Source: Patescibacteria group bacterium
GTDB taxonomy: Bacteria; Patescibacteriota; Minisyncoccia; HO2-45-28
NCBI GenBank assembly: GCA_038064075.1
Contig: JBBTTU010000004.1
Span: forward strand, 647-64,646
Reading direction: 5' to 3'
DNA length: 64,000 nt
The notes under the pieces were generated by a model. It saw nothing but the letters and a program-made list of their open reading frames with translations. It was not told the DNA's origin and did no database searches. Each line of letters begins with the position of its first letter. The first letter of the stretch is position 1. Position numbers and translations under genes: made by a program. Below, in pieces: positions 34,479-51,129 of the stretch.

Positions 34479-34568
34479 TTTGAACCCTCCTTAGTTTAAA
34501 ATTAAAAGTTCAAAGGTCAATATCCACCGATATTATATATTTAAAAATATTTTTGTCAATTTAAGGAC

Positions 34569-35579
34569 ATGATTTTGCAAAAAAGAAAAATTTTAATCAC
34601 CGGAGGCGCCGGCTTTATCGGCTATCATCTGGCGCGGCATCTTTTGAAAGAATACGGCTCCAACGCCGGGATAATTTTAGTTGATAATTTCAGGCGCGGA
34701 AAAGCCGATAATGATCTGAAAAAACTTTTAGATGATCCGCGGGTGCGTTTTTTGGAATTGGATTTGACAAACCCTGCTTCTTACGAAAAATTAGGCGCGG
34801 GATATGATCATGTCTACCACTTGGCCGCGATCAACGGCACCAAGAATTTTTATGAAATGCCGCATGAGACTTTAAGGATTAACACTCTTTCGCTGGCGCA
34901 CATGCTGGAATGGTTCAAAGAAAAAAACCGCGCCGGCAAATTTTGTTTTACCTCGTCCAACGAGGCCTACGCCGGCGCGCTCAATGCCTTCGGCAAATTA
35001 CCGATTCCGACTCCGGAAAAAGTGCCGCTAATCGTGGAAGATACTTATAACCCAAGGTGGTCGTACGCGGCAACTAAATTAGTCGGCGAGCTTTTCGTGA
35101 TCCACTATGCCGCAAAATATAATTTTCGGGCCTTAATCGTAAGGCCGCACAATTTTTACGGGCCAAGAGCGGGCTTCGACCACGTCATCCCCGAATTTTC
35201 TATGCGTATTGCCAAGCGCATAGACCCGTTTCCGATTTATGGCGCAGACGATACCAGGACATTTTGCTATATTGACGATGCCGTCCGCGCGATGCAAATG
35301 CTTATGGATTTTTCCAAAACCGACAATCAGCCGATTGAGACGGTCCATATCGGAGATGTTCACGAAATTACAATGGAGGAACTGGCGGAGCGGATGTTTA
35401 AGGTTGCGCTCTGGAGACCTCAAAAAATAGAAATCAAATCTTCGCCGGCCGGCAGCGTTAAAAGGCGTCTGGCTGATATTTCCAAGCTTCAAAACCTGAC
35501 AGGCTGGAGGCCGCAAGTCGCCTTAGATGAAGGACTTAAAAAAACCTATGACTGGTATTTATTAAATCCCAAAGAATAA
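34569..35579 (+). CDS. NAD-dependent epimerase/dehydratase (SDR family, sugar-nucleotide modifying).
   Basis: 'ILITGGAGFIGYHLARHLL' and 'YAATKLVGE' (YxxxK). Confidence 0.65.
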   Translation: MILQKRKILITGGAGFIGYHLARHLLKEYGSNAGIILVDNFRRGKADNDLKKLLDDPRVRFLELDLTNPASYEKLGAGYDHVYHLAAINGTKNFYEMPHETLRINTLSLAHMLEWFKEKNRAGKFCFTSSNEAYAGALNAFGKLPIPTPEKVPLIVEDTYNPRWSYAATKLVGELFVIHYAAKYNFRALIVRPHNFYGPRAGFDHVIPEFSMRIAKRIDPFPIYGADDTRTFCYIDDAVRAMQMLMDFSKTDNQPIETVHIGDVHEITMEELAERMFKVALWRPQKIEIKSSPAGSVKRRLADISKLQNLTGWRPQVALDEGLKKTYDWYLLNPKE

Positions 35580-36656
35580 TTAATATTTTATTTTTATCTT
35601 TTTGCCTTGGCGCGCGGATTTTATAAAGGCGTCTGCAAGAACAATATTGAGCAGGCCGTCTTCAAGAGCGGCATTCGGCGTTTTTTTGCCGGAAAGTATT
35701 GAATCGCCGAAATCTTCTATTTCTTTTTGCCACAAATTTTCTTTTTTAAACGAATAAGAACGGTTTGCCGGCTTTTCCGGTTGCATTTTATAGTGCCATA
35801 CGGTTTTAAGGCGGCCGGCGCTTCTTTTTGAGCTGATTTTTTTTGTTTTTAAAATCAGGCGGCTGCTTGAATTCGGGGCCATGAAATCATAAAGTTCAAT
35901 ATTTCCTTTATCCCCGTAAATTCCAATAAAGTTTCCAAGATGCGCAATTACTTTGCTTGTCGCGATTGTCGCGAAGAAATCGCCGTAATTTATTATGCCG
36001 AGCGCAGTTAGGTCGGCTTTTTTGTTTTTATTCATCATGGCCGAAACGACTAAAGGTTTCTTATTTGTGAGAGCGTTAATTAAATCCAATAAATGCGTTC
36101 CGCGGGCCATAAACGCGCCGCCGCCCTCCTTTAAATTTTCGCGCCATTTCATGTGAGCGGGAAGGGGGAAAAATTTTGTATAGCCTATGCACCAGTGGGT
36201 TTTAATTAGCAAAATTTTTCCTATTTTTCCGGAGGCTATTATTTTTTTGGCTTTTTGTACAGCCGGATGGTGGCGCAGATGAAATCCGACCGCGAAACGG
36301 ACGTGATGTTTTTTGACGGCGCTTGCCATTGCCTGCCCGTCTTTTAGCGAGAGCGCGAGCGGCTTTTCGCAAAGAATGTGTTTTCTCGCAGAGGCCGCCA
36401 TTAAAACATGACGGACATGCTCATTATTTTTTGATGATATAAGAATCGCGTCCACTTCAGGATTTTTTAGCATGTCTTGGATTGCGCCGTAATGCGGGAA
36501 TCCGTATTTTTTTGCGAAATTCTCCGCCCGGTTTTTGTTTTTGCTTGACGCAAAATAAAGAATCCCGTTTTTGGAGCCGGCGATTGACCGCGCCATATTT
36601 TCTCCCTGCACTCCCAACCCAATAATGCCCCACCTGATTTTTTTCGCCCGGTTCAT
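35580..36656 (-). CDS. Gfo/Idh/MocA family NAD(P)-dependent oxidoreductase (sugar dehydrogenase).
   Basis: 'IRWGIIGLGVQGENMARSI', 'EVDAILISSKNNEHVRHV', 'ILCEKPLALSLKDGQAM'. Confidence 0.7.
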   Translation of the reverse strand: MNRAKKIRWGIIGLGVQGENMARSIAGSKNGILYFASSKNKNRAENFAKKYGFPHYGAIQDMLKNPEVDAILISSKNNEHVRHVLMAASARKHILCEKPLALSLKDGQAMASAVKKHHVRFAVGFHLRHHPAVQKAKKIIASGKIGKILLIKTHWCIGYTKFFPLPAHMKWRENLKEGGGAFMARGTHLLDLINALTNKKPLVVSAMMNKNKKADLTALGIINYGDFFATIATSKVIAHLGNFIGIYGDKGNIELYDFMAPNSSSRLILKTKKISSKRSAGRLKTVWHYKMQPEKPANRSYSFKKENLWQKEIEDFGDSILSGKKTPNAALEDGLLNIVLADAFIKSARQGKKIKIKY

Positions 36657-36724
36657 TATTTTAAGGATAGGAATTATTGGGATATTGTCAAACAGCCGTA
36701 AATAGGGTATTTTTGGTTTAAATT

Positions 36725-37663
36725 ATGAAATCGCGGTTAATCTCGGTCATTGTTCCGTTTTTTAACGAGGAAAAGAATGTCGCCGAGCTCCATCAGCGCT
36801 TGATCGGGGTTTTTAAGAATTTGGATTATGATTTTGAAATTGTTTTTGTTGATGACGGTTCAACCGACGCGACATTTGAGGCGATGAGGAGTTTGAAACC
36901 GCTTACCGCTTTGCGCTTGCGAAAAAATTTCGGTCAAAGTCATGCTTTAGCCGCCGGCATCAGGCGTTCCCGTGGCGATACGGTGGTGACAATGGACGGC
37001 GATTTGGAAAATCATCCGGAAGACATTCCGCGGCTGATCGCCAAGATAAACGAGGGTTATGATGTTGTTTCCGGATGGCGGAAAAATCGCTGGAGCAATC
37101 AGTTGATTTTGCGCCGCATTCCGTCTCTGGCGGCCAACAAACTGATTGCTTATGTTTCCGGAGCGGCTTTGAACGATTTTGGCTGCGCCTTGAGGGCATA
37201 TCGCCGTTCGGTTATCAATCAAATACAGCTGAAAGGCGAAGAACATCGTTTGATTGCCGCCAACGCTTCTGTTTTAGGCGCTCATCTCGCCGAGATTGAA
37301 GTTCAATATTCGGCGCGAAAATCAGGCAAATCAAAATACGGTTTGATGAGAATCTTTAAGGTATTGCTTGACGTTCTGGCGCTTACTTTTTTCAACCGAT
37401 ATTCATCCCGCCCGATTCATTTTTTCGGCGGTTTTGGTTTTGCCGGCCTGTTTTTAAGTTTGGCCGCGTTTATAATTATGCTTTACTTGAGAATTTTTAT
37501 GGGCATTAGTTTTATTTTAACTCCATTGCCGACACTGGCCGCCATTTTTGCCATTATCGGCGTGCAGTTTATTTTAATGGGATTGCTGGCGGAAATTTAT
37601 ATTCGGCGCGATAAAAATACCAGCGAAAATGATTTTTTAATTAAAGAGGAAATTATTAATTGA
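36725..37663 (+). CDS. Glycosyltransferase family 2, polyprenyl-phosphate sugar synthase with C-terminal TM helices (GtrB/ArnC-like).
   Basis: 'ISVIVPFFNEEKNV', 'VFVDDGSTD', 'MDGDLENHP', plus two C-terminal hydrophobic helices. Confidence 0.7.
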   Translation: MKSRLISVIVPFFNEEKNVAELHQRLIGVFKNLDYDFEIVFVDDGSTDATFEAMRSLKPLTALRLRKNFGQSHALAAGIRRSRGDTVVTMDGDLENHPEDIPRLIAKINEGYDVVSGWRKNRWSNQLILRRIPSLAANKLIAYVSGAALNDFGCALRAYRRSVINQIQLKGEEHRLIAANASVLGAHLAEIEVQYSARKSGKSKYGLMRIFKVLLDVLALTFFNRYSSRPIHFFGGFGFAGLFLSLAAFIIMLYLRIFMGISFILTPLPTLAAIFAIIGVQFILMGLLAEIYIRRDKNTSENDFLIKEEIIN

Positions 37664-37668
37664 CAATT

Positions 37669-39525
37669 ATGTGCGGCATTGCCGGTATTATCGGCGGCGA
37701 CCAAGAGTTAATCAGGAAAATGACCGCGGCTATCAGGCATCGCGGTCCTGATGACGAAGGTTTTTTTCAAGACGGCGATGTTTTTTTGGGTCACAGACGT
37801 CTTTCAATCATTGATTTGGCAGGCGGGCGCCAGCCGTTCTTGTCCGCTGACGGCAAATCAGCCGTTGTTTTCAACGGCGAAATTTATAATTTTAAAGAAC
37901 TGAAAAAAGAGTTGAGTCGTAAGCATTCGTTTCGCAGCCAGAGCGACACCGAAGTTGTTTTGGAGGGCTGGCTTGAGTGGGGTCAAAATATATTTGAGCG
38001 CCTTGAGGGAATGTTTGCGATAGGCATTTGGGACGGGCGGAATAAAACCTTGGTTTTGGCGCGCGACCGGATGGGCGAGAAACCTTTGTATTATTGCGCC
38101 AGCGGCGATTTTTTTGCTTTTGCTTCGGAGCTGAAAAGTTTTATTGCAAGCCGCGCCGCGCCGAAAGAAATAGATCCGGAATCGGTCATTCGTTATTTGT
38201 CTTTCGGCTATATCCCGTCGCCTTACACGATTTTTAAGAATATTTATAAACTTGAAGCCGGTCAATATTTGGTTTGGCAAAACGGGCGCGCTGACATTAA
38301 AAGATATTGGCAGCCGTCTTTTTCGCCGGCCCGGATCCCGGACTCCTTTGAATCAGCTAAAAAAAAATTGGAACTGGCGCTGGAAAATACGGTGAAAAAA
38401 ACAATGATTGCCGATGTGCCGGTCGGAGTTTTTTTATCCGGAGGCCTTGATTCCAGTTTGATCGCTTATTTCGCCAAAAAAATAAATCCGCAGCTTGAAA
38501 CATTCTCAATAGGTTTTGAAGAAAAGTCTTTTGATGAATCATTTTATGCGGGACTGGCGGCGCGGATTCTTAAAACCCGCCATTACCAAAAAATTGTCGG
38601 TCCGAAAGAAGTTTTGAATCTTTTGCCGCGCATCGCCGAAATAATTGACGAGCCGTTTGCCGATCCCTCAATAATTCCGACCTATATTCTTTCGGCGTTT
38701 GCCCGCCAAAGAGTGAAAACCGTTTTGGGCGGAGACGGCGGCGACGAGTTATTTTTGGGCTATCAGACTTTCATTGCCGAGAAATTGTGGCGGATGTCGT
38801 CGCCTTTTTTGCCGGCCGCTTCCGTTTTGGCGAAAGCGGCGTTGCGATTGATTCCGACATCCGGAAAATACATGTCGCTTGATTTCAAGCTGCGCCGCTT
38901 TTTTTCAAACAGCCGCGGCGGGCCTGTTTTGCGCCATCAGCAGTGGCTTGCCAATTTTAATTCCGAAGACTTGGATCGTATTTTATCAAATGATATGAAA
39001 AATTCTTTTTTGCCATTTAAAATAGCGGAAGGCGCGATCAATGATCCCATCGGTAATTTAAACGGATCATCTTGGAATCAAATCATCCGTTTTTATCAGA
39101 AGTTTTATTTGGGAGATCAGGTTTTAACCAAAGTTGACCGCGCCAGCATGGCTAATTCGCTTGAAGTCCGCGCTCCTTTTTTAAACCACAATCTGGCTGA
39201 ATTTGTTCTTTCTTTGCCGGTTAATTTTCGCCTGCGCGGCTTTAAGACCAAATATATTTTGAGAAAAATAGCAGCCGGATATTTTCCAAAAAATATCGCT
39301 TGGCGCTCCAAACAGGGTTTTGCCGTTCCTCTCGGTAAGTGGTTTAGAAATGAACTGAAAGAATTTGCCGAAGAAAAATTGTCGCATTTTAAATCCAATC
39401 CGTGGTTTAATCCGCCGGCGGTTGACGGAATCTGGACCGAACATCAAACCGGCAGAGCGGACCGGCGGATGGAAATTTGGAACATGATTGTTTTTCAGTC
39501 CTGGCTTGAAAAATGGGGCTTGTAG
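37669..39525 (+). CDS. Asparagine synthase (glutamine-hydrolysing) family amidotransferase, second copy.
   Basis: 'MCGIAGIIGG', 'HRRLSIIDL', 'VGVFLSGGLDSSLIA'. The ATG at 37669 gives the required N-terminal Cys; the tool's TTG at 37660 is rejected. Confidence 0.8.
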   Translation: MCGIAGIIGGDQELIRKMTAAIRHRGPDDEGFFQDGDVFLGHRRLSIIDLAGGRQPFLSADGKSAVVFNGEIYNFKELKKELSRKHSFRSQSDTEVVLEGWLEWGQNIFERLEGMFAIGIWDGRNKTLVLARDRMGEKPLYYCASGDFFAFASELKSFIASRAAPKEIDPESVIRYLSFGYIPSPYTIFKNIYKLEAGQYLVWQNGRADIKRYWQPSFSPARIPDSFESAKKKLELALENTVKKTMIADVPVGVFLSGGLDSSLIAYFAKKINPQLETFSIGFEEKSFDESFYAGLAARILKTRHYQKIVGPKEVLNLLPRIAEIIDEPFADPSIIPTYILSAFARQRVKTVLGGDGGDELFLGYQTFIAEKLWRMSSPFLPAASVLAKAALRLIPTSGKYMSLDFKLRRFFSNSRGGPVLRHQQWLANFNSEDLDRILSNDMKNSFLPFKIAEGAINDPIGNLNGSSWNQIIRFYQKFYLGDQVLTKVDRASMANSLEVRAPFLNHNLAEFVLSLPVNFRLRGFKTKYILRKIAAGYFPKNIAWRSKQGFAVPLGKWFRNELKEFAEEKLSHFKSNPWFNPPAVDGIWTEHQTGRADRRMEIWNMIVFQSWLEKWGL

Positions 39526-39540
39526 ATTTATTTTTTATAT

Positions 39541-40305
39541 ATGGCTTCCCAGGAAAGATTCGGTTACGAATGGTCCAGATATAAAAAAATCCTTCCGGAG
39601 CACGAGGGCCAGTTTTTAAAATGGGTTTTTCCGCTTGTTCCGGAGGACTTTAAGGGCAAACGCGTTTTGGATGCCGGTTGCGGGATGGGGCGCAATTCTT
39701 TTTGGCCCTTAAAATACGGCGTTTCAGAAGCGGTGGCTTTTGATTTTGACCAAAGAAGCGTCCAGGCCGCCCGGCGCAATTTGTCGGCTTTTCCGCACGC
39801 CCGGGTTTTATACCAATCGGTTTATGACGCGGATTTTGAAAACGAATTTGACATTGTTTTTTCAATCGGCGTCATTCATCATCTTGAAAATCCGCGGGAA
39901 GCCGTCCGGCGGATGGTCCGGGCCGCAAAATCCGGCGGCGCCGTTTTGATCTGGGTTTACGGTTATGAAGGTAACGAATGGATAGTTAAATTCGTATCTC
40001 CCGCCAGGCGGCTTATAACCAGCCGTTTGCCGCCGGCGTTTTTGAATTTTTTGACCTATTTTTTAAGCGCGCCGTTTTTCGCGCTGGTGAAAATTCTTCC
40101 GTTTAAAAATCCGTATTTAAGACAGCTTAAAAATTTCGGATTTAACCATATCCATTCCATAATTTTTGACCAGCTTCTGCCGAGAGTCGCCAATTATTAC
40201 AAAAAAGAAGAAGCTTTTGGCTTGATGGACGGATTTGGACTGAAAGATATTGAAATTTACCGGAAAAATAAAAATAGCTGGACTGTTTTGGGCCGAAAAA
40301 CTTAA
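39541..40305 (+). CDS. Class I SAM-dependent methyltransferase.
   Basis: 'VLDAGCGMGRNS' motif I and 'IGVIHHLENPREAVRRMVRAAKSGGAVLIWVY'. Confidence 0.6.
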   Translation: MASQERFGYEWSRYKKILPEHEGQFLKWVFPLVPEDFKGKRVLDAGCGMGRNSFWPLKYGVSEAVAFDFDQRSVQAARRNLSAFPHARVLYQSVYDADFENEFDIVFSIGVIHHLENPREAVRRMVRAAKSGGAVLIWVYGYEGNEWIVKFVSPARRLITSRLPPAFLNFLTYFLSAPFFALVKILPFKNPYLRQLKNFGFNHIHSIIFDQLLPRVANYYKKEEAFGLMDGFGLKDIEIYRKNKNSWTVLGRKT

Positions 40306-41024
40306 GGAATTTTCTTATAAACCCCTAAAAGCGAAACGCCGAACGGAAATTTTATTTTCGGCAGAAGAAAATATTCCAGCGTAAAAATTGACTTGAAAAC
40401 CGCGTTCAAAAACGGGTTATTCAATTTAAATTCCGTTCCGGTTTTAATATTAAAGAGCCGCATTGTTTTTCTTGCGGCAAGAATCAGCGGAGCCAGAAAA
40501 AAATTAAAGTAAGACTGATAGACCGTTTTAAATCCGGCGTTTTCAAATTTATTTTTCAGTTCCTGGTATGCGTATCGCCGGAAATGATGACTGATTTCGT
40601 CTTGTTCGCCCCAAAATATTTTTAAGGCCGGGACAAAAACGATGATAACGCCGTCCGGCTTCAAAAAATCTCTTAATTTTTTAATCGCGAGTTCGTCATT
40701 TTCGCAATGTTCAAGAATATCAAGCGCCAGCGCGCAGTCAAATTTGCCGTTGTTTTCAAAATTTTCAATACTAGACTCTATGACATCAACTCCGCGCAAC
40801 TTTGCGAATTTAACCGCTTCAGGCGAAGCGTCAATTCCGGTAACTTCGCCGTATTTTTCAAGCTCTTTTGTTAAAAGTCCGGCTCCGCAGCCGATGTCAA
40901 GCATATTGAGCGGTGTTTTGGGGCAGTAGGCCGCTATAATTTTATGAACAAGCAGCCGACGCACGACATACCACCAATGCGTTTTTTCGTTTTCATAAAT
41001 CTGGCGGTAAAGCTCAATTTCCAT
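40302..41024 (-). CDS. Class I SAM-dependent methyltransferase.
   Basis: 'MLDIGCGAGLLTKEL' and 'DCALALDILEHCENDELAIKKLRDFLKPDGVIIV'. Confidence 0.6.
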   Translation of the reverse strand: MEIELYRQIYENEKTHWWYVVRRLLVHKIIAAYCPKTPLNMLDIGCGAGLLTKELEKYGEVTGIDASPEAVKFAKLRGVDVIESSIENFENNGKFDCALALDILEHCENDELAIKKLRDFLKPDGVIIVFVPALKIFWGEQDEISHHFRRYAYQELKNKFENAGFKTVYQSYFNFFLAPLILAARKTMRLFNIKTGTEFKLNNPFLNAVFKSIFTLEYFLLPKIKFPFGVSLLGVYKKIP

Positions 41025-41037
41025 TACAATAAATCCT

Positions 41038-41880
41038 ATGTTATCACAAATTCAGCCGCTGCTGAAATGCCCTGATTGTTCGGCTGATTTTGACGCGGTT
41101 CAAAACGGCCTTCGCTGCAGGGCATGCCGCCGTTTTTATCATAAGAAAAACGATTCTTTAATGTTTGTTTCGCCGGCGCCGGAGGCTGGCGAGAACGCGT
41201 CTTTCATGCCGAATCTTAAAAAATTTCTTAAAAAACATCCTAAACTTTTTTTTGCTCTTTATTACACTCTCGGAGTTTTTGTCGGCAAAAGCGCGAAAAC
41301 GGCCGTCAAAATTATGCCGAAAGGCTCCGTGATTTTAAATATCGCTTCGGGGCCGAAAATCATAAGGGACGATGTCATTAATGTCGATATTGAGCCTTAT
41401 GCCGGCGTTGCGGTTTGCGCCGATATTATGAATTTGCCGTTTAAAGACGAAGCGGCCGACGCGGTCATTTGCGAATCTTCTTTTGAACATTTCAAAAATC
41501 CCGAAAAGGCTCTTTTGGAAATGAAGCGGGTGCTTAAAAACGGCGGATTGATTTATGCTTCGCTGCCTTTTATTTGCGGATTTCACGCCTCGCCCGATGA
41601 TTATTTCCGCTGGACCGAGGCCGGAATTGCGGAATTTTTTAAAGAATTTGAAACCAAAGAATTAGCCGTCGGCTGGGGACCGACTTACGCTTTAACCGCG
41701 ATACTTCGCGAGTGGCTGGCGCTGGTCTTGTCGTTTAACTCGGTTTTTCTGCACGAGTTTCTGGCGATTGTCTTTACCGTAATTTTCGCGCCGTTTAATT
41801 TTTTGGATCACATTTTGGCGCGATATCATTCGGCCAAAAATATATCATTCGGTTTTTATTATATCGGGATTAAAAAATGA
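41038..41880 (+). CDS. Class I SAM-dependent methyltransferase with an N-terminal CxxC...CxxC zinc ribbon (Trm112-like).
   Basis: 'CPDCSADFDAVQNGLRCRACRRFY', 'VINVDIEPYAGVAVCADIMNLPF', 'VICESSFEHFKNPEKALLEMKRVLKNGG'. Confidence 0.55.
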   Translation: MLSQIQPLLKCPDCSADFDAVQNGLRCRACRRFYHKKNDSLMFVSPAPEAGENASFMPNLKKFLKKHPKLFFALYYTLGVFVGKSAKTAVKIMPKGSVILNIASGPKIIRDDVINVDIEPYAGVAVCADIMNLPFKDEAADAVICESSFEHFKNPEKALLEMKRVLKNGGLIYASLPFICGFHASPDDYFRWTEAGIAEFFKEFETKELAVGWGPTYALTAILREWLALVLSFNSVFLHEFLAIVFTVIFAPFNFLDHILARYHSAKNISFGFYYIGIKK

Positions 41881-43553
41881 TTTTATATTTGAGAGAGAAT
41901 ATTGCGCGAAAGTCGTGGTTTAAATGGGGGATACTGGCGCTGGCGATGCTGCCTTCACTGACATATATGGCGATTCGGATCAGCCGCGATGAAAGTTGGG
42001 ACAATTGGGCTTTCGGTTCGGCGCAGACCATGCTTACCGTCCGGTATTGGGCGCGGGACGGATTCGTTAAACATAAATTTCTTTTTTTGCCGTCCGGATA
42101 TCATCCGGACATCCAAGTTCTGGATCGGCCCGAATTACGGTTTTTGGCGGACGGAATTTCCGGCTATGGTTTGATCGGCAGGCGGCTCTATTATACTCAT
42201 TATCCTCCTTTTTACCTTATGCCTTACGGTTTTCTTGCCAAATTCGGCGCAGAAAGCCGATTCTGGTTCAGAGCGCTGGCGTTTTTTTTCTCGTTTAGTT
42301 CAGCGGTTTTTATGGCCGGTTTTATTTATTTGATTACGAAACGGAATAAATGGGCGACTTTATCGGCGATTTTATATTATACGACTTCAACAACCTTTTT
42401 GGGCTATGCCGATTCTCTGGCCAATATGCCGGTGGATGATTTTTTTAAATGGCTTATATTGTTTTTAAGCGTTTACGGAATTTCCAAAATTGAGGTCGGG
42501 GAGCTCAAAAAATGGCTTGATAAAACAATATGGATTTTGTTTTTCGTTCTGGCCATAAGTTCTTATGACTCCGTTTTTTTCGTTTTTTTCTGGCTTTGCG
42601 CCTTAAATTACATCACGACCCAAAAAATCAACTTCAAAAAATACTTATTCTGGGCTTTGGCTCCGTTATCCGCTTTTATTCTGCAAATGGGACAGAATAT
42701 CTGGTATTTGGGTTTAAAAGACGCCGCGCTTGATGTTTACGGGACTTTTCTTTTCAGATTCGGCGAGACGCCGCAAGTCGGCGCTGGATTAAATAATCTT
42801 CCGCCCGTAATAAAAAATATTTTTCTGTCTCTTTCCGCTATCGGCTATTTTTCCGATCTTAAAACGAGATTTGCTCTTCCGCTCATTATTTTATTGGCTT
42901 ATTTATTTTTTAAGAATAAATTTGCTCACAAGGACATTTTGCGTTTTATTACAACGTTGTTTGTTGCCGGATTGATTTATCTTTTTATTCTTCCGTCCAC
43001 GGCGGCTTTCGGATATCAAGGCAGGCAAGCTGCGCCGGCGCTTCTTTTGTTGTTCTCTTTAGCTTTATGGCAGACAATTATTTCTTTTAAAGAAAAGAAT
43101 TTTGGAAAAGATAAACTGTTGGTCGCGTGCTGTCTTGGCATTTTTTTGGCGGCGCATTTTTACAACCTTTTTGCCTACCTTAAAGAATGGCCGCATGATG
43201 TAATTGCAAAAGAAAAAATAGAATATTTGCGCCAGCTTGCGGGCATAACAGACCAGCGAACAATAATTATCGGCACTGCGAATGCCGTTGCGGCCGGTTC
43301 GGAACGTTTTTTGGAAGAATATTATTCCGATCGCCTTATACTTGCTTTTAAAGATACGGACACATTGCTGGAATATATGGATAAATTGCGTTCAGTTATG
43401 TCCGGAGGAGTTAATTTTTTGATCGCGGCAACCGACGCGGAATACCAAGCAGTTTTAATGAAATTGAAATCCATGGAAAAATATACTATGATACCGCGGA
43501 CTGTTGATATGCCGCCGCAAGGTCTGGCGTTAATAAGCGTAACGCATAAATAA
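41877..43553 (+). CDS. Polytopic membrane protein, candidate novel GT-C-type glycosyltransferase. Paralog of the gene at 44522-46171.
   Basis: About 12 TM helices followed by a ~130-aa soluble C-terminus. The conserved acidic motif after TM1, 'RDESWDNWAFGSAQTMLTVRYWARDGF', is nearly identical in the paralog. I recognise no family. Confidence 0.45.
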   Translation: MILYLRENIARKSWFKWGILALAMLPSLTYMAIRISRDESWDNWAFGSAQTMLTVRYWARDGFVKHKFLFLPSGYHPDIQVLDRPELRFLADGISGYGLIGRRLYYTHYPPFYLMPYGFLAKFGAESRFWFRALAFFFSFSSAVFMAGFIYLITKRNKWATLSAILYYTTSTTFLGYADSLANMPVDDFFKWLILFLSVYGISKIEVGELKKWLDKTIWILFFVLAISSYDSVFFVFFWLCALNYITTQKINFKKYLFWALAPLSAFILQMGQNIWYLGLKDAALDVYGTFLFRFGETPQVGAGLNNLPPVIKNIFLSLSAIGYFSDLKTRFALPLIILLAYLFFKNKFAHKDILRFITTLFVAGLIYLFILPSTAAFGYQGRQAAPALLLLFSLALWQTIISFKEKNFGKDKLLVACCLGIFLAAHFYNLFAYLKEWPHDVIAKEKIEYLRQLAGITDQRTIIIGTANAVAAGSERFLEEYYSDRLILAFKDTDTLLEYMDKLRSVMSGGVNFLIAATDAEYQAVLMKLKSMEKYTMIPRTVDMPPQGLALISVTHK

Positions 43554-43561
43554 AGGGGAAT

Positions 43562-44512
43562 GTGATTAATATTAATTATTCTAAATTAGAAAAAGAGGCG
43601 AGAGATTATTGGGAATGGAGCGCCTTAAATCCTTTTTTTCCGGTTTCAGAATCCGTGGCGAAAGAAGGAGCCGGATCCGAATTGCGCAATCCGTTGATGC
43701 ATTACGGCGCGGTAATGCCGGTCTATTTGGCGGCCGCGCGTTATTTGCAGGCATTGCGTCTTTCAAAAAACGCAAAATTAGTAGAACTTGGCTGCGGCAC
43801 GGGAAGAGCGCTGGTTTATCTCAAAACGATATTCCCTCATATTGAAATTTTGGGAGCGGATTATTCAAAGGAAATTATTGATTACGCGAAATCGGCATAC
43901 GGCAGATTTGGAGTTCAATTTATGTATATTGAGTCTGCCAAAAACACTCAATTTCCGGCGTCATCTTTTGATGTTGTTTTGTCTTCTCATGTCATTGAAC
44001 ATATTGAAAAGCGGGAAGGTTTGCGTTTTTTGGAAGAAGCGCGGCGCATATTGAAACCAAAAGGATATGCTTTTATTGGCACTCCGGAAAGAAGAAATTG
44101 TCAGAATCTTTATATGGAAAATCCAAACGATGAAATAAAATACCGGCTTATTCTTCCGCATAAACACGAATATACTCTTCCGGAATTAAGAGCGGCGGCC
44201 GAGCAAGTATTTTCAATTGGCGAGGTGCGGATAGACGCATTATATAATCATTTATTGCGCGGCATTTTTAGTTTAAGCGCGCAAAGATTCAAACCGGACG
44301 GCAGTTTTGTTAAAAATATCGCCAGTGCGATGTATCAGGGCGCGAGAAACATGCTTCCCAGGACGGTTTTTGACGCGCTGGTCCGTTTTGGAATTTCAGC
44401 GCAAATGAGATTTTTGGACGCGAGTTTTTTTGATGTTTTGTCGGCTAATCGGATCGGAAAAGAAGATGAGAGAAAAACCCCGGATAATTTGTTTCTGGTA
44501 TGCCAAAAATAA
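43562..44512 (+). CDS. Class I SAM-dependent methyltransferase.
   Basis: 'LVELGCGTGRALVYL' and 'VLSSHVIEHIEKREGLRFLEEARRILKPKGYAFI'. The GTG start is uncertain; the ATG at 43560 is followed immediately by a TGA stop. Confidence 0.55.
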   Translation: MININYSKLEKEARDYWEWSALNPFFPVSESVAKEGAGSELRNPLMHYGAVMPVYLAAARYLQALRLSKNAKLVELGCGTGRALVYLKTIFPHIEILGADYSKEIIDYAKSAYGRFGVQFMYIESAKNTQFPASSFDVVLSSHVIEHIEKREGLRFLEEARRILKPKGYAFIGTPERRNCQNLYMENPNDEIKYRLILPHKHEYTLPELRAAAEQVFSIGEVRIDALYNHLLRGIFSLSAQRFKPDGSFVKNIASAMYQGARNMLPRTVFDALVRFGISAQMRFLDASFFDVLSANRIGKEDERKTPDNLFLVCQK

Positions 44513-44521
44513 TTTATTAAA

Positions 44522-46171
44522 ATGGAAATTTTACGAAATAAAAAGAATCTGCGGTTTGGATTTTTGGCATTTTTAATTATTTTGCCTTCTTTGATTTTTT
44601 TAGTTTCGCGATCCGCTCAGATTGAAAGTTGGGACAACTGGAATTGGGGTTCGGCCCAGACAATGCTTACTGTCCGCTACTGGGCAAGAGACGGCTTTTT
44701 AAAGCACAGGATGTTTTTTTTGCTTAACGGTTATCATCCTGAAATAGAAATTTTAGATAAACCGGAATTCCGTTTTCTGACAGGCAACACGCTGACGGGC
44801 GGCCTTGTCGGCAACAGGCTTTATTACAATCATTATCCGTCCAATTACGTCATTCCTTACGGTTTGCTTGGAAAATTGGGCGTTGAGAATAGATTTTGGT
44901 TCAGAATGTTATCAGTTGTTTTTTCTTTCGGCTCGGTTTTATTTTTAGCCGGTTTTATCTATATTCTGACTAATTACAATCGCTGGATTGCCTTGATTGC
45001 CGTTTTTTATTACATCACTTCATCCAGTTTCATCAGTTATGCCGATTCGCTGAATAACACTCCTTTGGATGATTTTTTTAAGCTCTTGATTTTATTTTTG
45101 AGCGCGTATTATTGGAAAATAGCCGACAGCGCGGCGTCAAAACGGCGGTTGAAATCGGCAATCTGGATTTTGTATTTTATTTTGGCCTCCGTTTCTCTTG
45201 ACTCAACTTTTTTCGTATTTTTCTGGCTCGGCGCTTTCAATTTCATGGAAACCAAAAAATTCAATTTTAAAGAATATTTTTACTGGGCAGCGGCCCCGCT
45301 GTCTGCTTTTATTATCCAATTTACGCAGAATACTTTTTATTTGGGTTTTAAAAACGCAATGCTTGATTTATGGGGCGATTTTTTATACCGTTTCAGCGAG
45401 GCGCCGGCGGCTTTAGATAATCTGCCTCCGATAATAAAAAGTATTTCCGCGGCGTTTTCAACAGCCGGATATTTTTCAGATATGCGCACCAGATTCGCAA
45501 TCCCGTTGATTTTATTGTTGGTTTATTTCCTTTTTAAGGAAAAAGACTCTAAACATCTTTTGCGCTACGGCGCGATTTTGGCGGTCAGCGGTTCAATCCA
45601 TCCTTTTATTTTTCCGGTGGCCGGCACGTTTGGATATCAAGGAAGACAAATGGCTCCGGCATTGCTTTTAATTTTCGGGCTTGCCGCCTGGAAATTATTG
45701 AAAAAAATAAAAGAAAAACAATTTAGTTTACATTTTTTCGCTTTATTGTTTTGTGCGATCGCGTTTTGGGCGGCGCATTTTTCGGCCAGTTTCAGTTACA
45801 CCAGGGAGTGGCCGAACAATGTTTTTCCCAAAGAGGATATTGTTTTTCTCCAAAATTTGAATAAAATATCCGATTCTTCAACCATGATTTTAAGAATTAA
45901 ACCCGATATTGCCAAAGTAGACCGCTCTCTTGAGGATTTTTACGCCGATCGTCTCATAATTTCTTTTAAAAATATTGATGTTTTGCTGGAATATATGGAT
46001 AGAATTTATTCCACCATACCCGGAAAAGTCAATTTTCTGTTGGTTTTGCCCGGTCAGGAATATCAGCCGGCTTTGGAGAAGTTGAAAAATATGGATGATT
46101 TCAGCGCTGCAGACGCGCCAGTCGTTCCTTTGATTGATGATTTTAAAATCATTAAAGTAATTCATAAATGA
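44522..46171 (+). CDS. Polytopic membrane protein, candidate novel GT-C-type glycosyltransferase. Paralog of the gene at 41877-43553.
   Basis: 'QIESWDNWNWGSAQTMLTVRYWARDGFLKHRMFFL...RLYYNHYPSNYVIPYGLLGKLGVENRFWFR' is collinear with the 41877 protein. Confidence 0.45.
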   Translation: MEILRNKKNLRFGFLAFLIILPSLIFLVSRSAQIESWDNWNWGSAQTMLTVRYWARDGFLKHRMFFLLNGYHPEIEILDKPEFRFLTGNTLTGGLVGNRLYYNHYPSNYVIPYGLLGKLGVENRFWFRMLSVVFSFGSVLFLAGFIYILTNYNRWIALIAVFYYITSSSFISYADSLNNTPLDDFFKLLILFLSAYYWKIADSAASKRRLKSAIWILYFILASVSLDSTFFVFFWLGAFNFMETKKFNFKEYFYWAAAPLSAFIIQFTQNTFYLGFKNAMLDLWGDFLYRFSEAPAALDNLPPIIKSISAAFSTAGYFSDMRTRFAIPLILLLVYFLFKEKDSKHLLRYGAILAVSGSIHPFIFPVAGTFGYQGRQMAPALLLIFGLAAWKLLKKIKEKQFSLHFFALLFCAIAFWAAHFSASFSYTREWPNNVFPKEDIVFLQNLNKISDSSTMILRIKPDIAKVDRSLEDFYADRLIISFKNIDVLLEYMDRIYSTIPGKVNFLLVLPGQEYQPALEKLKNMDDFSAADAPVVPLIDDFKIIKVIHK

Positions 46172-47544
46172 AATTGGAAACGAAACATAAAATAGCCATT
46201 ATTTTTATTGCGGCTGTCGCCGTGAGGATATTATTTGGTTTTGGTCTTTTTTTCAATCACAATTCGCTTGTTTCTTATACCGGAGACGCCGCCGATTATC
46301 TTAACACCGCCGGCAATTTTCTTTATAAAGGCATTTGGTCGGCTTCGCCCGTTGATCCCGAACCGGACAATTTCAGAACGCCGATCTATCCGCTTTTTCT
46401 TCTGTTTTTTTACAGATTTAACATTTCTTTTAACTACGCCGGATTTGTTCAGGATTTGATAATGGCGATTACGGCTGTTTTGATTTATGTTTTGGGCCGG
46501 AAGATATTTTCTGAAAAAGCGGTTTTTCCCGCCGCGGTCTTTTTTGCCTTAAATCCCTATCTTGCCTCCTCTTTTATTTCCAAGGCGATAATGACGGAGG
46601 CTTTTGTCATTTTTTTTCTGGTTATTTCGCTTTTTAATTTGGGAATTTACATTGCTTATAAAAAAAGCGGCAATCTTTATTATGGTTCGGTTTTTCTGGC
46701 GCTTGCCGCTTTAACCAAACCGCAGTTCTTTTTTTTCGGCGTTTTTTTGTTTTTAGCGGTGTTTTTTGCCGGGGAACAGAAGATTATAAAAAGGTTTATT
46801 TATGCCGGACTGATCTTTTTAACGATGCTTTCGCCCTGGCTTTATTATAATTTTTTTGTTTTGAAAGTTTTTCAATTTTCATCTAATCCGCTGGCGGCTC
46901 TTTATCAGGATACCGGATTTTTTCAGGAGTTTTTAAAAGGCGGACACGGCCCGGCTTATAATGATTATACTTGGGATCGCGCCAAAGAGCGGTTGGGAGT
47001 TGATCATGACGCCCAGCTTTTTGAACCGCACCGCGCTCGAAAATTGGCAAAATCAGGAATTGAATTTATAAGAAAAAATCTTTTTTGGTTTGTTGTTTAT
47101 GATATTGTCAGCATACCGAGACTTTTTTGGCACGATACTACCGTAGACGCGATAATTCATGATTTTGGCATTGACAGCGCCGTTCTCGGGCCCGGCGGAA
47201 TGGACATTAATGCAGTGAAAAACATTTTCAGAGGAGAATTTTACGCGGCTGCCGGCGAGTTGCGAACGCATCCCATCTGGTATTTTTCTCTTTTTTTGAA
47301 ATTAACGACTTTATTGGCGAGCGGATTGGCTCTTCTTAATTTTTTCCTGCAATGGAAATTTAACGAGACTTTTCCAAAAAATTCACTTTTTCTGCTGTTA
47401 TTTATTCTTTTATACGCGGCGATTGTTTCGCCTTTGGGCCAGCAAAGGTATCGGGCGCCGATTTCTCCTTTTATGGCGATTCTTGCTTTTGACAGCATCA
47501 GATTGATTTATTTAAGAAGATTAAGCCATAAAATATCCATATGA
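46168..47544 (+). CDS. Polytopic GT-C glycosyltransferase, PMT_2/GT39-like.
   Basis: 'DAADYLNTAGNFLYKGIW' and 'FRTPIYPLFLLFFY' motifs shared with the 18356, 22192 and 24230 proteins. Confidence 0.6.
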   Translation: MKLETKHKIAIIFIAAVAVRILFGFGLFFNHNSLVSYTGDAADYLNTAGNFLYKGIWSASPVDPEPDNFRTPIYPLFLLFFYRFNISFNYAGFVQDLIMAITAVLIYVLGRKIFSEKAVFPAAVFFALNPYLASSFISKAIMTEAFVIFFLVISLFNLGIYIAYKKSGNLYYGSVFLALAALTKPQFFFFGVFLFLAVFFAGEQKIIKRFIYAGLIFLTMLSPWLYYNFFVLKVFQFSSNPLAALYQDTGFFQEFLKGGHGPAYNDYTWDRAKERLGVDHDAQLFEPHRARKLAKSGIEFIRKNLFWFVVYDIVSIPRLFWHDTTVDAIIHDFGIDSAVLGPGGMDINAVKNIFRGEFYAAAGELRTHPIWYFSLFLKLTTLLASGLALLNFFLQWKFNETFPKNSLFLLLFILLYAAIVSPLGQQRYRAPISPFMAILAFDSIRLIYLRRLSHKISI

Positions 47545-48245
47545 TTCTTTCCATTATTATCCCGTGTTTCAATGAAGAAAAAACCGTTTCAGACATGCTG
47601 AAGATGGTTGAGGCTTCCCCGTTAGATTATTTGGGCGTAAAAAAAGAGCTTATATTTGTTGATGACGGTTCAAATGACCGCACCTGGGATATTCTCACGG
47701 GCCTTCAAAATAAATATCAAATGAAATTGATCCGATCCGGAAAAAATATGGGAAAAGGTTTTGCAATCCGTTCAGGTTTGGCCGTCGCCACCGGCGACAT
47801 TGTCATTATTCAAGACGCGGATTTGGAATATTCGCCTTCCGATTACCCGCTTATTCTCAAGCCTTTTCTTGAAAATAAGGCAGACGTTGTTTATGGTTCC
47901 CGTTTTCTCAAAAGCAAATATCCGGCTCAAATGAAATTGGCATACTATTTAGCCAACCGATTGCTCTCCTTTTTAGCCAACGTTTTATACGGCATACACA
48001 TTACCGATGAAGCCACCTGTTACAAAGCTTTTAAAAGGGAAATTTTGGAAAAAATGAATCTTGAATGCCGGGGATTTGAATTTTGTCCCGAAGTGACCGC
48101 AAAACTTTCTTTGAAAAAAATCAAAATTGTTGAAGTGCCCATTGAATATCGCGCCAGAAGAGTTGAAGAAGGAAAAAAAATATCCTTAAAAGACGGATTT
48201 AAAGCAATCCAAACGCTTTTTAAATATCGGTTTAAGAGGCATTAA
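47541..48245 (+). CDS. Glycosyltransferase family 2, polyprenyl-phosphate sugar synthase-like (Dpm1-like).
   Basis: 'LSIIIPCFNEEKTV', 'IFVDDGSND', 'IIQDADLEYSP', 'VVYGSRF'. Paralog of the gene at 23512. Confidence 0.7.
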   Translation: MILSIIIPCFNEEKTVSDMLKMVEASPLDYLGVKKELIFVDDGSNDRTWDILTGLQNKYQMKLIRSGKNMGKGFAIRSGLAVATGDIVIIQDADLEYSPSDYPLILKPFLENKADVVYGSRFLKSKYPAQMKLAYYLANRLLSFLANVLYGIHITDEATCYKAFKREILEKMNLECRGFEFCPEVTAKLSLKKIKIVEVPIEYRARRVEEGKKISLKDGFKAIQTLFKYRFKRH

Positions 48246-48271
48246 AATATATTTTGTTTATATTTGCGCAT

Positions 48272-48679
48272 ATGATCACTCCGGAAAAAGAAGCGGAAAT
48301 AATAGCTCGGTATTTGATCGGCGCAAAGTTAAGCCGCGCCAATCAAAATCTTTTTGATCAAGCGATTAAAACTCATAATATAAAAATGAATCAGAAGGAT
48401 CAGCGAATCTGGAATTTGGTTTTAAATCATCCGGCATTATTGCCGTATATTGACGCCGGATTTGCTCTTATCCAGCCGACAAACTCAATTAGGAAAAAAA
48501 TTTATATTATGTTCGCTGTTCTTGAAACTGAACCGTCTTATTCGGAATTTTTCTTATATAATAAAAAGAGAATTCCATGGGTTATAAATGCCGGCTGGCT
48601 GGGTTTAAGGGCTTTATTTCGGGCGATTGTCGGATTTTTTATCTTAAAATCATTGATTTTATATGAAAAGATATCATGA
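48272..48679 (+). CDS. Hypothetical small protein.
   Basis: ORF only. I recognise no motifs. The ATG at 48272 is preferred. Confidence 0.3.
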   Translation: MITPEKEAEIIARYLIGAKLSRANQNLFDQAIKTHNIKMNQKDQRIWNLVLNHPALLPYIDAGFALIQPTNSIRKKIYIMFAVLETEPSYSEFFLYNKKRIPWVINAGWLGLRALFRAIVGFFILKSLILYEKIS

Positions 48680-50294
48680 TTTTATAGTTGTCGGCTCCGG
48701 CCCGAGCGGAGCAATGGCGGCTCAAAGTTTGGTAGAAGCCGGCGCGGATGTCGGCATGGTGGATGTCGGATTTTACGACGATTATTATCAAGACAAGATA
48801 CCAAAAAATAATTTTGCGTCTATCCGCAAATCGGACGCCGATCAGCATGTTTATTTTTTGGGAAAGAATTTTGAAGGAATATCTTTTGGCAAAACAAAAG
48901 CCGGCGCTCAGCTTACTCCGCCGCGGCAATTTACAACCGAAGGAACCGGTAAATGGCTTCCGGTCGCATCGGATAATTTTCAGCCGGTGGAATCGCTGGC
49001 TTACGGAGGGCTTGGCGGCGCCTGGGGATTGGCTTGTTTTGTTTATTCCGAACCTGAAATACAGGCTGTCGGCCTTCAAAAAGAGGCTCTTTTGGATTCT
49101 TATCGCGTTATTGCCGGCAGGATCGGCATATCCGGCATTCACGACGATGGGTCGCCGTATTGTCTTGGGAAGCTGCAAAATATTCAGCCGCCGACGCGTT
49201 TGGAATCAGGTTTGAACGGAATTTATTCTTCTTACCAAAAAAACAGTTCATTGCTGAAGAGTAAAGGATTTTTTTTGGGAAGAACGCCGCTGGCCATGTT
49301 AACCTCCGATTTGGGCAGGCGCAAAAGCACGGAGTACCGAGACATGGATTTTTGGGACAATTACGGAGATTCCGCCTACCGCCCGGCAATAACTTTAAAC
49401 GATTTAAAAAAAAGACCCAATTTTTTCTATTACGGAAACTGTTTGGTGACGCGGTTTTCGGAACAAAGCGCCGAAATTGAAATTACGGCGCGCAAAACAA
49501 ATGGTTCAAAATATGAAGATGAAAAATTTTATTGCAAGAAGCTGATCCTGGCCGCCGGAACATTGGGCACGGCCCGCATTGTTATGCGGTCTTTCAACTA
49601 TAATCAAAACCGGCTGCCGATTCTTTGCGGAATCTATTGTTATCTTCCTTGTTTTCAGCCGAGAATGATCGGGAAAGAGGCTGACGCCAGAAAAATAAGT
49701 TATAGCCAGTTGTCGCTTTTTTACGACAAACATAAAAATGGATTTGATATTTCCACTCTCATGTTTTACACCTATTCTTCGCTGATGCTGTTTCGTCTGG
49801 CCAATGAACTGCCTTTTAATTTTGCCGACGCGCTCCGTCTTTTAAGGCTGGGCTATCCGTGTTTGGCAATAGCCGGTCTCCATCATCCCGACAAAGGCTC
49901 GCCGGATAAATACATTAAACTGGTAAAAGATGAATCCAGCCCGACCGGGGACAAGCTGGTCATCAATTATAAATTATCGGACAGAGAGATAAGAGAAAAT
50001 ATAAGCCGCGAAAAAATGATTAAAAAAGCTCTTCGCCGGCTGGGATGTTATCCGATAAAACGGCTGGATCCGGGATACGGCTCAAGCATTCACTACGGCG
50101 GAACGCTGCCGTTCAATGATTCCGGAAAGCCGTTTACCCTTTCAGTCAGCGGCAGGCTTAACGGCACGGAAAATGTTTATGTCGCGGATGGTTCGGGTTT
50201 GCGATATATGCCGGCAAAGGGTCCGACTTTCACTTTAATGGCCAACGCTCATATTACGGCCTGCAATGCCTTGAAATCTTTCCGGCATGGATAA
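48663..50294 (+). CDS. GMC-family FAD-dependent oxidoreductase.
   Basis: N-terminal 'YHDFIVVGSGPSGAMAAQSLVEAG' FAD-binding GxGxxG. C-terminal 'YVADGSGLRYMPAKGPTFTLMANAHITA' is GMC_oxred_C-like. Confidence 0.65.
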   Translation: MKRYHDFIVVGSGPSGAMAAQSLVEAGADVGMVDVGFYDDYYQDKIPKNNFASIRKSDADQHVYFLGKNFEGISFGKTKAGAQLTPPRQFTTEGTGKWLPVASDNFQPVESLAYGGLGGAWGLACFVYSEPEIQAVGLQKEALLDSYRVIAGRIGISGIHDDGSPYCLGKLQNIQPPTRLESGLNGIYSSYQKNSSLLKSKGFFLGRTPLAMLTSDLGRRKSTEYRDMDFWDNYGDSAYRPAITLNDLKKRPNFFYYGNCLVTRFSEQSAEIEITARKTNGSKYEDEKFYCKKLILAAGTLGTARIVMRSFNYNQNRLPILCGIYCYLPCFQPRMIGKEADARKISYSQLSLFYDKHKNGFDISTLMFYTYSSLMLFRLANELPFNFADALRLLRLGYPCLAIAGLHHPDKGSPDKYIKLVKDESSPTGDKLVINYKLSDREIRENISREKMIKKALRRLGCYPIKRLDPGYGSSIHYGGTLPFNDSGKPFTLSVSGRLNGTENVYVADGSGLRYMPAKGPTFTLMANAHITACNALKSFRHG

Positions 50295-51129
50295 AAATCA
50301 AACCATTATAATAACCGGCAGTTCCGGTTTTATCGGTTCCCGCTTGGTCGGCCATTTTTTAAAATTAGGCTTTAACGTCCGCACTTTTCAAAGAGCAAAG
50401 TGCGATTACAACAATCCGATGGCGTCTTGTTTCCATTTTGAGTTGAGCGAAGTAAAAGATATGGGGTTTCAGGGAGCCGATTACTTGGTGCACTCCGCTT
50501 ATCAGCCGGTTATCGGAAGAAACCGCGCCGCCGATGTTAATCTGGAAGGCGCCAAAAAAATTATATCTTTATGCCGGAAATACGGCGTGAAAATGGTTTT
50601 TCTTTCAACCTTGTCCGCTCATTCGGAAGCGGAATCCAATTACGGGCGGCAAAAGTTATTAATGGAAAGTTTATTTGATCCGCGTCAAGATTTAATATTG
50701 AAACCGGGGCTGGTATTGGGCGAAGGAGGGGGGCTTTTCGGAAGAATAGCTTCCGTATTAAAAACTAAAAAAATTATTCCCCTTGTCGGGGGAGGTAAAC
50801 AGCGCGTTCAGACCATAGAGCTTGATGATTTATGCCGGATAATAGAATTGGGAATTAAAAAAAATATTTGCGGCAGTTTTATGGTTGCGACTCCGGACGC
50901 GATTACCCTGAAAGAACTTTATCTTAATATAGCGAAAAAAGCAGGATCAAAACCATTGTTTATTCCGGTTCCGACCATCCTTGCTTATTTTATTTTGAGA
51001 TTTGCCGAGATATCGGGAATACGGCTTCCAATAACATCCGAAAACGTTCTTGGCCTCAAACATTTAAAAGTTTTCAATACCGCGCCTGATTTGAGGCGAT
51101 TCGGGGCGGTTTTAAAAAATTACAAATGA
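50287..51129 (+). CDS. NAD-dependent epimerase/dehydratase family (SDR) protein.
   Basis: 'IIITGSSGFIGSRLVGHFLKLGFNVRTF' Rossmann motif. 280 aa. Confidence 0.55.
   Translation: MDKNQTIIITGSSGFIGSRLVGHFLKLGFNVRTFQRAKCDYNNPMASCFHFELSEVKDMGFQGADYLVHSAYQPVIGRNRAADVNLEGAKKIISLCRKYGVKMVFLSTLSAHSEAESNYGRQKLLMESLFDPRQDLILKPGLVLGEGGGLFGRIASVLKTKKIIPLVGGGKQRVQTIELDDLCRIIELGIKKNICGSFMVATPDAITLKELYLNIAKKAGSKPLFIPVPTILAYFILRFAEISGIRLPITSENVLGLKHLKVFNTAPDLRRFGAVLKNYK

Follow-up and report, generated by a model that had tools for sequence, protein, structure and literature searches.

Two neighbouring genes of a patescibacterial genome very probably encode integral-membrane glycosyltransferases of the GT-C fold, enzymes that would take a sugar from a polyprenyl-phosphate carrier and, on the outer face of the membrane, transfer it to a surface glycan or glycoconjugate, with the methyltransferases encoded around them being neighbours in the pathway. 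The two genes, MemA and MemB, lie in the stretch of DNA analysed here, 64,000 nt of contig JBBTTU010000004.1 of a Patescibacteria group bacterium (the whole stretch is referred to as the window, and all coordinates refer to it), where they alternate with two genes encoding class I S-adenosylmethionine (SAM) methyltransferases, MT-A and MT-B. The four open reading frames (ORFs), placed between 41038 and 46171 by a first-pass annotation, were recovered at exactly these positions in the ORF listing (Table 1). All four are closely packed: MT-A and MemA overlap by 4 nt (ATGA), MT-B is flanked by gaps of 8–9 nt, and the stop codon of MemB overlaps the start of a gene for a PMT_2-type GT-C protein, again by 4 nt (ATGA). 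Exact protein matches in NCBI are AAB474_00520 and AAB474_00530. A promoter and terminator scan gave promoter counts similar to those of shuffled sequences (38 versus 34.3 ± 5.8) and did not help to place operon boundaries.

Paralogy and fold of the membrane proteins

MemA and MemB are identical at 283 of 553 positions (51%; E = 0) and collinear from the N- to the C-terminus, including the C-terminal soluble domain; as first proposed, they are true paralogs. They belong to a family designated here family F. Neither protein has a Pfam match at E <= 0.1, neither reaches the gathering score of PMT_2 (PF13231), and no match was found in NCBIfam or among PDB sequences. A database search returned 118 relatives, and an alignment of 43 sequences (A1) was used to build an AlphaFold2 model with a mean predicted local distance difference test score (pLDDT) of 93.2 and a predicted template modelling score (pTM) of 0.92. 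The top Foldseek matches to this model are STT3, AglB, PglB, and ArnT, at E 1e-8 to 1e-5, and the N-terminal bundle of transmembrane (TM) helices of the predicted model superposes on solved GT-C enzymes. The GT-C fold was found by two methods. Sequence profiles lead, more weakly, to the same group: 13 of the 43 family members match Pfam PMT_2 (best E 5.3e-7), and a profile–profile comparison between family F and 31 PMT_2-type proteins encoded beside family members gave a probability of 90% and E 1.8e-7 in global mode, and E 5.9e-5 in local mode. Such hhalign comparisons were informative only with alignments on both sides; the family profile compared with single sequences gave uninformative probabilities for the PMT_2 neighbour (0.1%) and for M593 (2.4%), a further membrane protein of the window described below. 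Direct searches of MemA against PDB chains, and of the PMT_2 neighbour against PDB sequences with the aim of chaining to ArnT residue numbering, returned no match. The family profile run against PDB found only chance matches to designed proteins, on the C-terminal domain, which were discarded. Taken together, the predicted fold and, weakly, the sequence support membership of MemA and MemB in an unnamed family of GT-C-fold glycosyltransferases, and the earlier guess of a GT-C fold is borne out in this respect.

Topology and conserved residues

Throughout the family, the density of lysine plus arginine alternates between inside loops (0.16–0.34) and outside loops (0.00–0.07), a pattern that fits a predicted topology of 11 TM helices with the N-terminus inside and the C-terminus outside, in which the helix at residues 310–326 does not span the membrane. 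According to the model helices and these counts, the invariant polar residues are all on the outside face. The first external loop (residues 36–127, between TM1 and TM2) is about 90 residues long and holds D83 as well as W41, W44, G47, and Q50, which form a near-invariant core. The loop motifs of the family are W-x-x-W, G-x-A-Q-T, L-D-x-P-E-x-R, and Y-T-H-Y-P. Further outward conserved residues in the 43-sequence alignment are Y106-T-H108-Y109-P110; D179, D187, and D188 after TM3; S229/D231; the loop Q270...D286; and Y380/R383. At position 107, where the family has a nearly invariant Thr, MemB has Asn. Residues ~445–558 form a small, poorly conserved alpha/beta domain, predicted to be external.

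The sequence ESWDNW had been regarded as a conserved acidic motif of this first loop. The motif is present, but E39 is not conserved (the column is mostly Y or N) and Asp at residue 42 is shared by only about one in three family members, being restricted to the Patescibacterial branch (W-D-x-W...F-G-S-A-Q). A conserved acid, which the annotation had expected in the first extracytoplasmic loop, is nevertheless found there: D83 is invariant in 43 of 43 sequences, in the larger set 178 of 186 members that align at this position have it, and Asp occurs at either 42 or 48 in ~182 of 198. The larger branch, of ~600-aa proteins from Nitrospirota, Desulfobacterota, Planctomycetota, Omnitrophota, and Elusimicrobiota, reads W-S-D-W...F-G-D-A-Q. 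Among the 198 members aligned at both positions, 58 have Asp at 42 only, 124 at 48 only, none at both, and ~8 at neither, and the split tracks the branches within and outside the Candidate Phyla Radiation (CPR); the MemA residues correspond to window ~42000–42020. This exclusivity looks like a relocated active-site acid. The CPR-type change from D48 to S is always paired with the gain of D42 (58 versus 0 with both), which resembles a compensated relocation and not a loss. In PMT_2 proteins the first external helix starts with ‘G-D’; the global profile alignment matches G47-x48 to this pair, the local alignment the invariant D83.

These residues also bear on the idea that one or both copies are a non-catalytic GT-C-like scaffold, comparable with PIG-U/GAB1 in the glycosylphosphatidylinositol transamidase, or that one is a degenerating duplicate partnering the PMT_2 neighbour. 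We consider this very unlikely: the 18 residues that are invariant in the family, six of them acidic, are all present in both MemA and MemB, every CPR-type member has gained D42 where D48 was lost, and catalytic GT-Cs outscore PIG-U in the fold comparison.

Distribution and gene neighbourhoods of family F

Searched exhaustively with the family profile, 1.84 billion cluster representatives yielded 635 family F proteins at E <= 1e-3, of which 137 reach E <= 1e-30. Among 185,579 species, each represented by one genome, 48 loci were found, all of them in metagenome-assembled genomes (MAGs) or single-amplified genomes. Family F is small, limited to uncultivated lineages, and annotated only as ‘hypothetical’. 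For the neighbourhood survey, ORFs were called in 55 loci (the window and 54 related loci, coded L001, L003, L008, etc.) and labelled with profiles from window proteins; 49 of these loci carry a family gene. In CPR genomes the commonest identified immediate neighbour is a PMT_2-type GT-C (~457 aa), which adjoins 10 of the 25 family genes, mostly with 4-nt overlaps. The PMT_2 gene of the window has orthologs (34–68% identity) in L001, L006, L007, and L008. A GT2 glycosyltransferase is encoded within 10 kb of the family gene in ~30 of the 49 loci scanned, and a GT2 of the polyprenyl-phosphate type is adjacent or within ~1.2 kb in most loci, across several phyla. In the window, the GT2 at 47541 matches the NCBIfam models AglJ (1.7e-33), PgfS (6.8e-23), ArnC (2.1e-18), and PpgS (9.4e-17), all under the equivalog cut-offs, and is likely the maker of the lipid-linked donor. 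A second candidate, at 36725, heads a block that is collinear with L008, where its ortholog is 67% identical.

From the adjacency of GT2 genes and the outward orientation of the conserved polar residues, we infer a lipid-phosphate-linked donor, and the following mechanism is proposed. The GT2 synthases at 47541 and 36725 would make a polyprenyl-phosphate-sugar on the cytoplasmic face, which would then be flipped across the membrane; MemA and MemB would each move a monosaccharide from the flipped donor onto a growing surface glycan or glycoconjugate outside. The active site would be formed by the long first external loop together with the outward residues, namely the WxxW-GxAQ helix with Asp 42 or 48, D83, YTHYP, D179, D187/D188, D231, the Q270–D286 loop, and Y380/R383, and the external alpha/beta domain may aid acceptor binding. 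The two paralogs probably differ in acceptor or linkage specificity. The flanking methyltransferases most likely act on the cytoplasmic side, where they would O-methylate sugars of this glycan, and would not be fused mechanistic partners.

Several other arrangements were recorded in the survey. At least 17 non-CPR loci show the order GT2, radical-SAM/SPASM protein, family member, and the strongly conserved cassette outside CPR comprises a radical-SAM/SPASM protein, the alpha and beta subunits of a thiamine pyrophosphate-dependent E1 dehydrogenase, a GT2 (260 aa), a second radical-SAM/SPASM protein of 369 aa (E 1e-150 to 1e-260 in phmmer comparisons between loci), the family member, and in many cases a YfhO-like GT-C (L004:777-9894; L024–L027, L029, L031, L032, L035–L037, L040–L042, L044, L046, and L052). 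This cassette suggests an unusual, radical-SAM-tailored lipid-linked donor. In a Parcubacteria MAG (L003:10001-20362), four family paralogs stand in a row, interleaved with a methyltransferase, a 529-aa protein that none of the profiles used here matched, and two PMT_2-type GT-Cs. The paralogs of this MAG expanded independently and to a larger number, and independent arrays also occur in L013, L014, and L018. Finally, L022 (2.2 kb), L010, and L008 are labelled ‘Nanoarchaeota’, ‘Gammaproteobacteria’, and ‘Saccharibacteria’, although in the tree their family genes group with the copies from Patescibacteria; these labels are possibly binning or labelling artefacts.

Duplication and gene-order history

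The locus had first been described as a tandem duplication of a unit formed by a methyltransferase and a membrane protein, and this does not hold. MT-A and MT-B are not specifically similar, the best BLASTP alignment reaching E 0.064 across 35 residues; what they have in common is the class I SAM-methyltransferase fold only (Methyltransf_11 and related Pfam models). The direct DNA repeats between the two halves (70–73% identity over 120–248 nt, with a spacing of 2618–2633) are confined to the Mem genes. It follows that the membrane-protein gene was duplicated alone, and the duplication took place in an ancestor that this genome shares with L008.

The locus L008 is collinear with window 33762–51129, except for M593, with gene-by-gene identities of 52–81%. 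Its order is MT-A, M593, F1, MT-B, F2, PMT_2, GT2 (F, F1, and F2 denoting family F genes), and in a neighbour-joining tree with single-copy genomes as outgroup MemA pairs with L008-F1 and MemB with L008-F2. The closely related single-copy loci L001, L007, and L009 share the order MT(-), MT-A ortholog (53–54%), M593 ortholog (37–39%), one F, PMT_2, GT2. The ancestral order reads as MT-A, M593, F, PMT_2, GT2; on this reading F was duplicated in the shared ancestor of this genome and L008, where the unrelated MT-B also came to separate the two copies, and M593 later moved ~9 kb downstream in this genome. MT-A and MemA are adjacent here because of that relocation. Across the 17 kb that are collinear with L008, no gene has diverged more than MemA: it is 52% identical to its ortholog, compared with 65% between MemB and F2 and 60–81% for all other genes, which suggests relaxed or shifted constraint on one of the duplicates.

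Methyltransferases and M593

MT-A matches Methyltransf_11 (E 5.8e-15), has an N-terminal CxxC...CxxC zinc-ribbon-like segment, and ends in a hydrophobic helix that is conserved among MT-A-type methyltransferases, also in L056 and L058; these enzymes are therefore probably membrane-associated. MT-B, which is soluble, matches Methyltransf_11 at E 1e-19 and has an ortholog (71%) at the same position in L008 only. Among PDB sequences MT-B comes closest to phosphatidylethanolamine and phosphoethanolamine N-methyltransferases (8ys9, E 8e-11; 5wp5, E 1e-8); as these matches are limited to the generic SAM-binding core, no substrate is assigned. Two further class I methyltransferase genes, at 39541 and 40302, are kept upstream of MT-A, with orthologs (53–70%) in L001, L007, L008, and L009. 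M593 represents a third, separate GT-C-fold family that has no Pfam match and is widespread in Patescibacteria. MT-A orthologs (53–64% identity) precede M593 orthologs in L001, L007, L008, and L009; MT-A-type genes stand directly 5' of M593 orthologs in these four loci and in L058, and one gene off in L056. The recurrent pair of methyltransferase and GT-C is MT-A with M593 and not with MemA, M593 being the ancestral downstream neighbour of MT-A that was relocated here.

These data bear directly on an alternative in which each pair of methyltransferase and GT-C is a functional module, the methyltransferase modifying a lipid-linked donor or product and the adjacent GT-C transferring that methyl-sugar, and in which the module was duplicated with changed specificity. 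The tight packing or overlap of the genes, the conservation of F1-MT-B-F2 in L008 (including the 71% identity of MT-B), the occurrence of a methyltransferase between or beside family paralogs also in L003, L014, and L055, the helix that would sit MT-A-type enzymes at the membrane, and their recurrent position 5' of M593, another GT-C family, are in line with such a module. Yet MT-A and MT-B are not paralogs, no DNA repeat extends over them, and the proximity of MT-A to MemA is secondary. The conservation of adjacency, which the first-pass annotation had proposed to check, was not observed: of 62 family genes, 8 directly adjoin a methyltransferase gene (7 of the 25 CPR copies, in four genomes, and 1 of the 37 others), and the single-copy loci L006, L010, L011, and L012 have F and PMT_2 and no methyltransferase close by. 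Moreover, as there are seven methyltransferases among the ~36 genes of the surrounding island, chance adjacency is not rare. The module is thus improbable, and of the original interpretation (glycosyl transfer coupled with methylation and performed twice) the GT-C part stands while the coupling, with 8 of 62 adjacencies and M593 as the conserved partner of MT-A, is not supported.

Our preferred interpretation therefore treats the methyltransferases as pathway neighbours of MemA and MemB. Because MT-A recurs with M593, action of methyltransferases on lipid-linked sugar donors stays alive as an idea, at low probability. In its widest form, membrane-anchored MT-A-type enzymes, and perhaps MT-B, would methylate polyprenyl-phosphate-sugars on the cytoplasmic face, and the GT-Cs that lack Pfam matches (M593, and family F in the case of MT-B) would transfer the pre-methylated sugars outside, while non-CPR members of family F would use radical-SAM enzymes instead to tailor the donor. 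This proposal is distinctly doubtful; if true, a pathway using lipid-linked methyl-sugar donors would be a characteristic of Patescibacteria.

The surrounding glycan island

Window 15018–54164 (~40 kb) is a single large surface-glycan island of ~36 genes. It encodes at least seven GT-Cs (PMT_2-type proteins at 18356, 22192, 24230, and 46168, together with MemA, MemB, and M593), three GT2s of the polyprenyl-phosphate type (23512, 36725, and 47541), five GT4s (one with a fused GtrA domain), two AsnB-like amidotransferases of near-identical length, UDP-glucose dehydrogenase, several epimerases/dehydratases, and a Wzx-type flippase. Its seven methyltransferases consist of two sugar C-methyltransferases and five class I enzymes. 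Downstream of MemB and the PMT_2 gene, the run at 47541–51129 consists of the GT2, a 141-aa ORF (at 48254, matching neither Pfam nor NCBIfam), a GMC-type FAD oxidoreductase (543 aa, weak matches only), and a short-chain dehydrogenase/reductase (SDR; 280 aa), in the same order in L008. We take the succession of GT2, GMC oxidoreductase, and SDR to be formally analogous to the DprE1/DprE2 oxidation–reduction epimerisation of a lipid-linked sugar.

Table 1. Coordinates and main properties of the features discussed, in window order.
Feature	Position	Strand	Description
TylC3-like	20924-22135	+	sugar C-methyltransferase
AsnB-like	25581-27446		amidotransferase, 621 aa
GT4-GtrA fusion	29104-30930		GtrA_DPMS_TM domain at C-terminus
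ORF	33762-34478	-	238 aa; no Pfam match
GT2, ArnC-like	36725-37663	+	C-terminal TM helices; second candidate polyprenyl-phosphate-sugar synthase; NCBIfam ArnC (PRK10714) E 1.2e-56, PgfS 3.1e-39, both below cut-off
AsnB-like	37660-39525		amidotransferase, 621 aa
Methyltransferase	39541-40305	+	class I SAM; Pfam Methyltransf_11 E 1e-16
Methyltransferase	40302-41024	-	class I SAM; Pfam Methyltransf_11 E 2e-17
MT-A	41038-41880	+	280 aa; class I SAM methyltransferase (ORF listing and Pfam)
MemA	41877-43553	+	558 aa; member of the unnamed GT-C family F; 11 predicted TM helices; C-terminal alpha/beta domain of ~110 aa, extracytoplasmic
MT-B	43562-44512	+	316 aa, GTG start; soluble class I SAM methyltransferase between MemA and MemB
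MemB	44522-46171	+	549 aa; MemA paralog, family F
PMT_2-type GT-C	46168-47544	+	458 aa, ArnT/PMT-like; Pfam PMT_2 E 3e-9
GT2	47541-48245	+	234 aa; candidate polyprenyl-phosphate-sugar synthase (DPM1/AglJ/PpgS/ArnC-like); Pfam Glycos_transf_2 E 4.8e-33
M593	51126-52907	+	593 aa; third separate GT-C-fold family, no Pfam; widespread in Patescibacteria
TylC3-like	52920-54164	-	sugar C-methyltransferase

Comparison with known systems

Family F is set apart from the ArnT/PMT_2-type enzymes (PF13231; CAZy GT83 and GT39 relatives) by several features. MemA and MemB fall under every Pfam threshold; the first loop of family F, of ~90 residues, has motifs that the PMT_2 neighbours lack; family F has neither a DE motif nor a MIR domain, its C-terminal domain being a small alpha/beta module; and the CPR branch has the Asp moved from 48 to 42. 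M593 forms a distinct family, with other conserved motifs and a far wider spread in Patescibacteria, and it is M593, not family F, that is the conserved neighbour of MT-A-type methyltransferases. With STT3/AglB/PglB, which gave the best Foldseek matches, family F has the GT-C core in common, but its external C-terminal domain is far smaller, and the neighbouring GT2s point to a monophosphate-linked monosaccharide as donor and not to a diphosphate-linked oligosaccharide.

These comparisons also touch on whether MemA and MemB might be protein O- or N-glycosyltransferases, PMT- or PglB-like, acting on secreted or S-layer/pilin proteins. The hallmark motifs of such enzymes (DE plus MIR; WWDxG) are missing from the family: D38-E39 of MemA is not conserved and MemB is without DE, Pfam gave no MIR match, and the WWD of the oligosaccharyltransferases (GT66) was seen in 0 of 43 aligned members. 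Protein glycosylation is accordingly a rather unlikely function.

The closest logic to that proposed for MemA and MemB is found in Gtr-type systems, in which three components, a polyprenyl-phosphate-sugar synthase (GtrB), a flippase (GtrA), and a GT-C (GtrC/Gtr*), act together, including systems for pentofuranoses (PMC11127046). In both cases a GT2 would charge polyprenyl phosphate for use by a GT-C outside, and several paralogous GT-Cs of differing specificity per locus are a feature in common. The candidate synthases of the window lie two genes downstream of MemB (47541) and upstream (36725). In contrast to Gtr loci, no dedicated GtrA-like gene was recognised beside MemA and MemB, the 141-aa ORF at 48254 giving no match in Pfam or NCBIfam; the only GtrA domain is the C-terminal part of a GT4, 12 kb upstream. 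GT-C families without likeness to existing ones are still being founded, as with GT136, whose founder is ORF12 (PMC11127046); like family F, GT136 has no similarity to established families. A search of the literature on GT-C proteins in Patescibacteria found nothing specific.

Significance

Family F is a new, unnamed family inside a well-known enzyme superfamily, with a familiar mode of working and a place in an ordinary glycan island; neither a new mechanism nor a new kind of system is revealed. What is gained is a fold and a probable reaction type for a family annotated everywhere as ‘hypothetical protein’, and for the more widespread Patescibacterial M593, which is useful for the annotation of CPR genomes and for picking candidate new GT-C families for CAZy. 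To our knowledge, Patescibacteria lack lipopolysaccharide. An organism with a tiny genome spends here a ~40-kb island, with at least seven GT-C enzymes, on an elaborate and probably methylated surface glycan.

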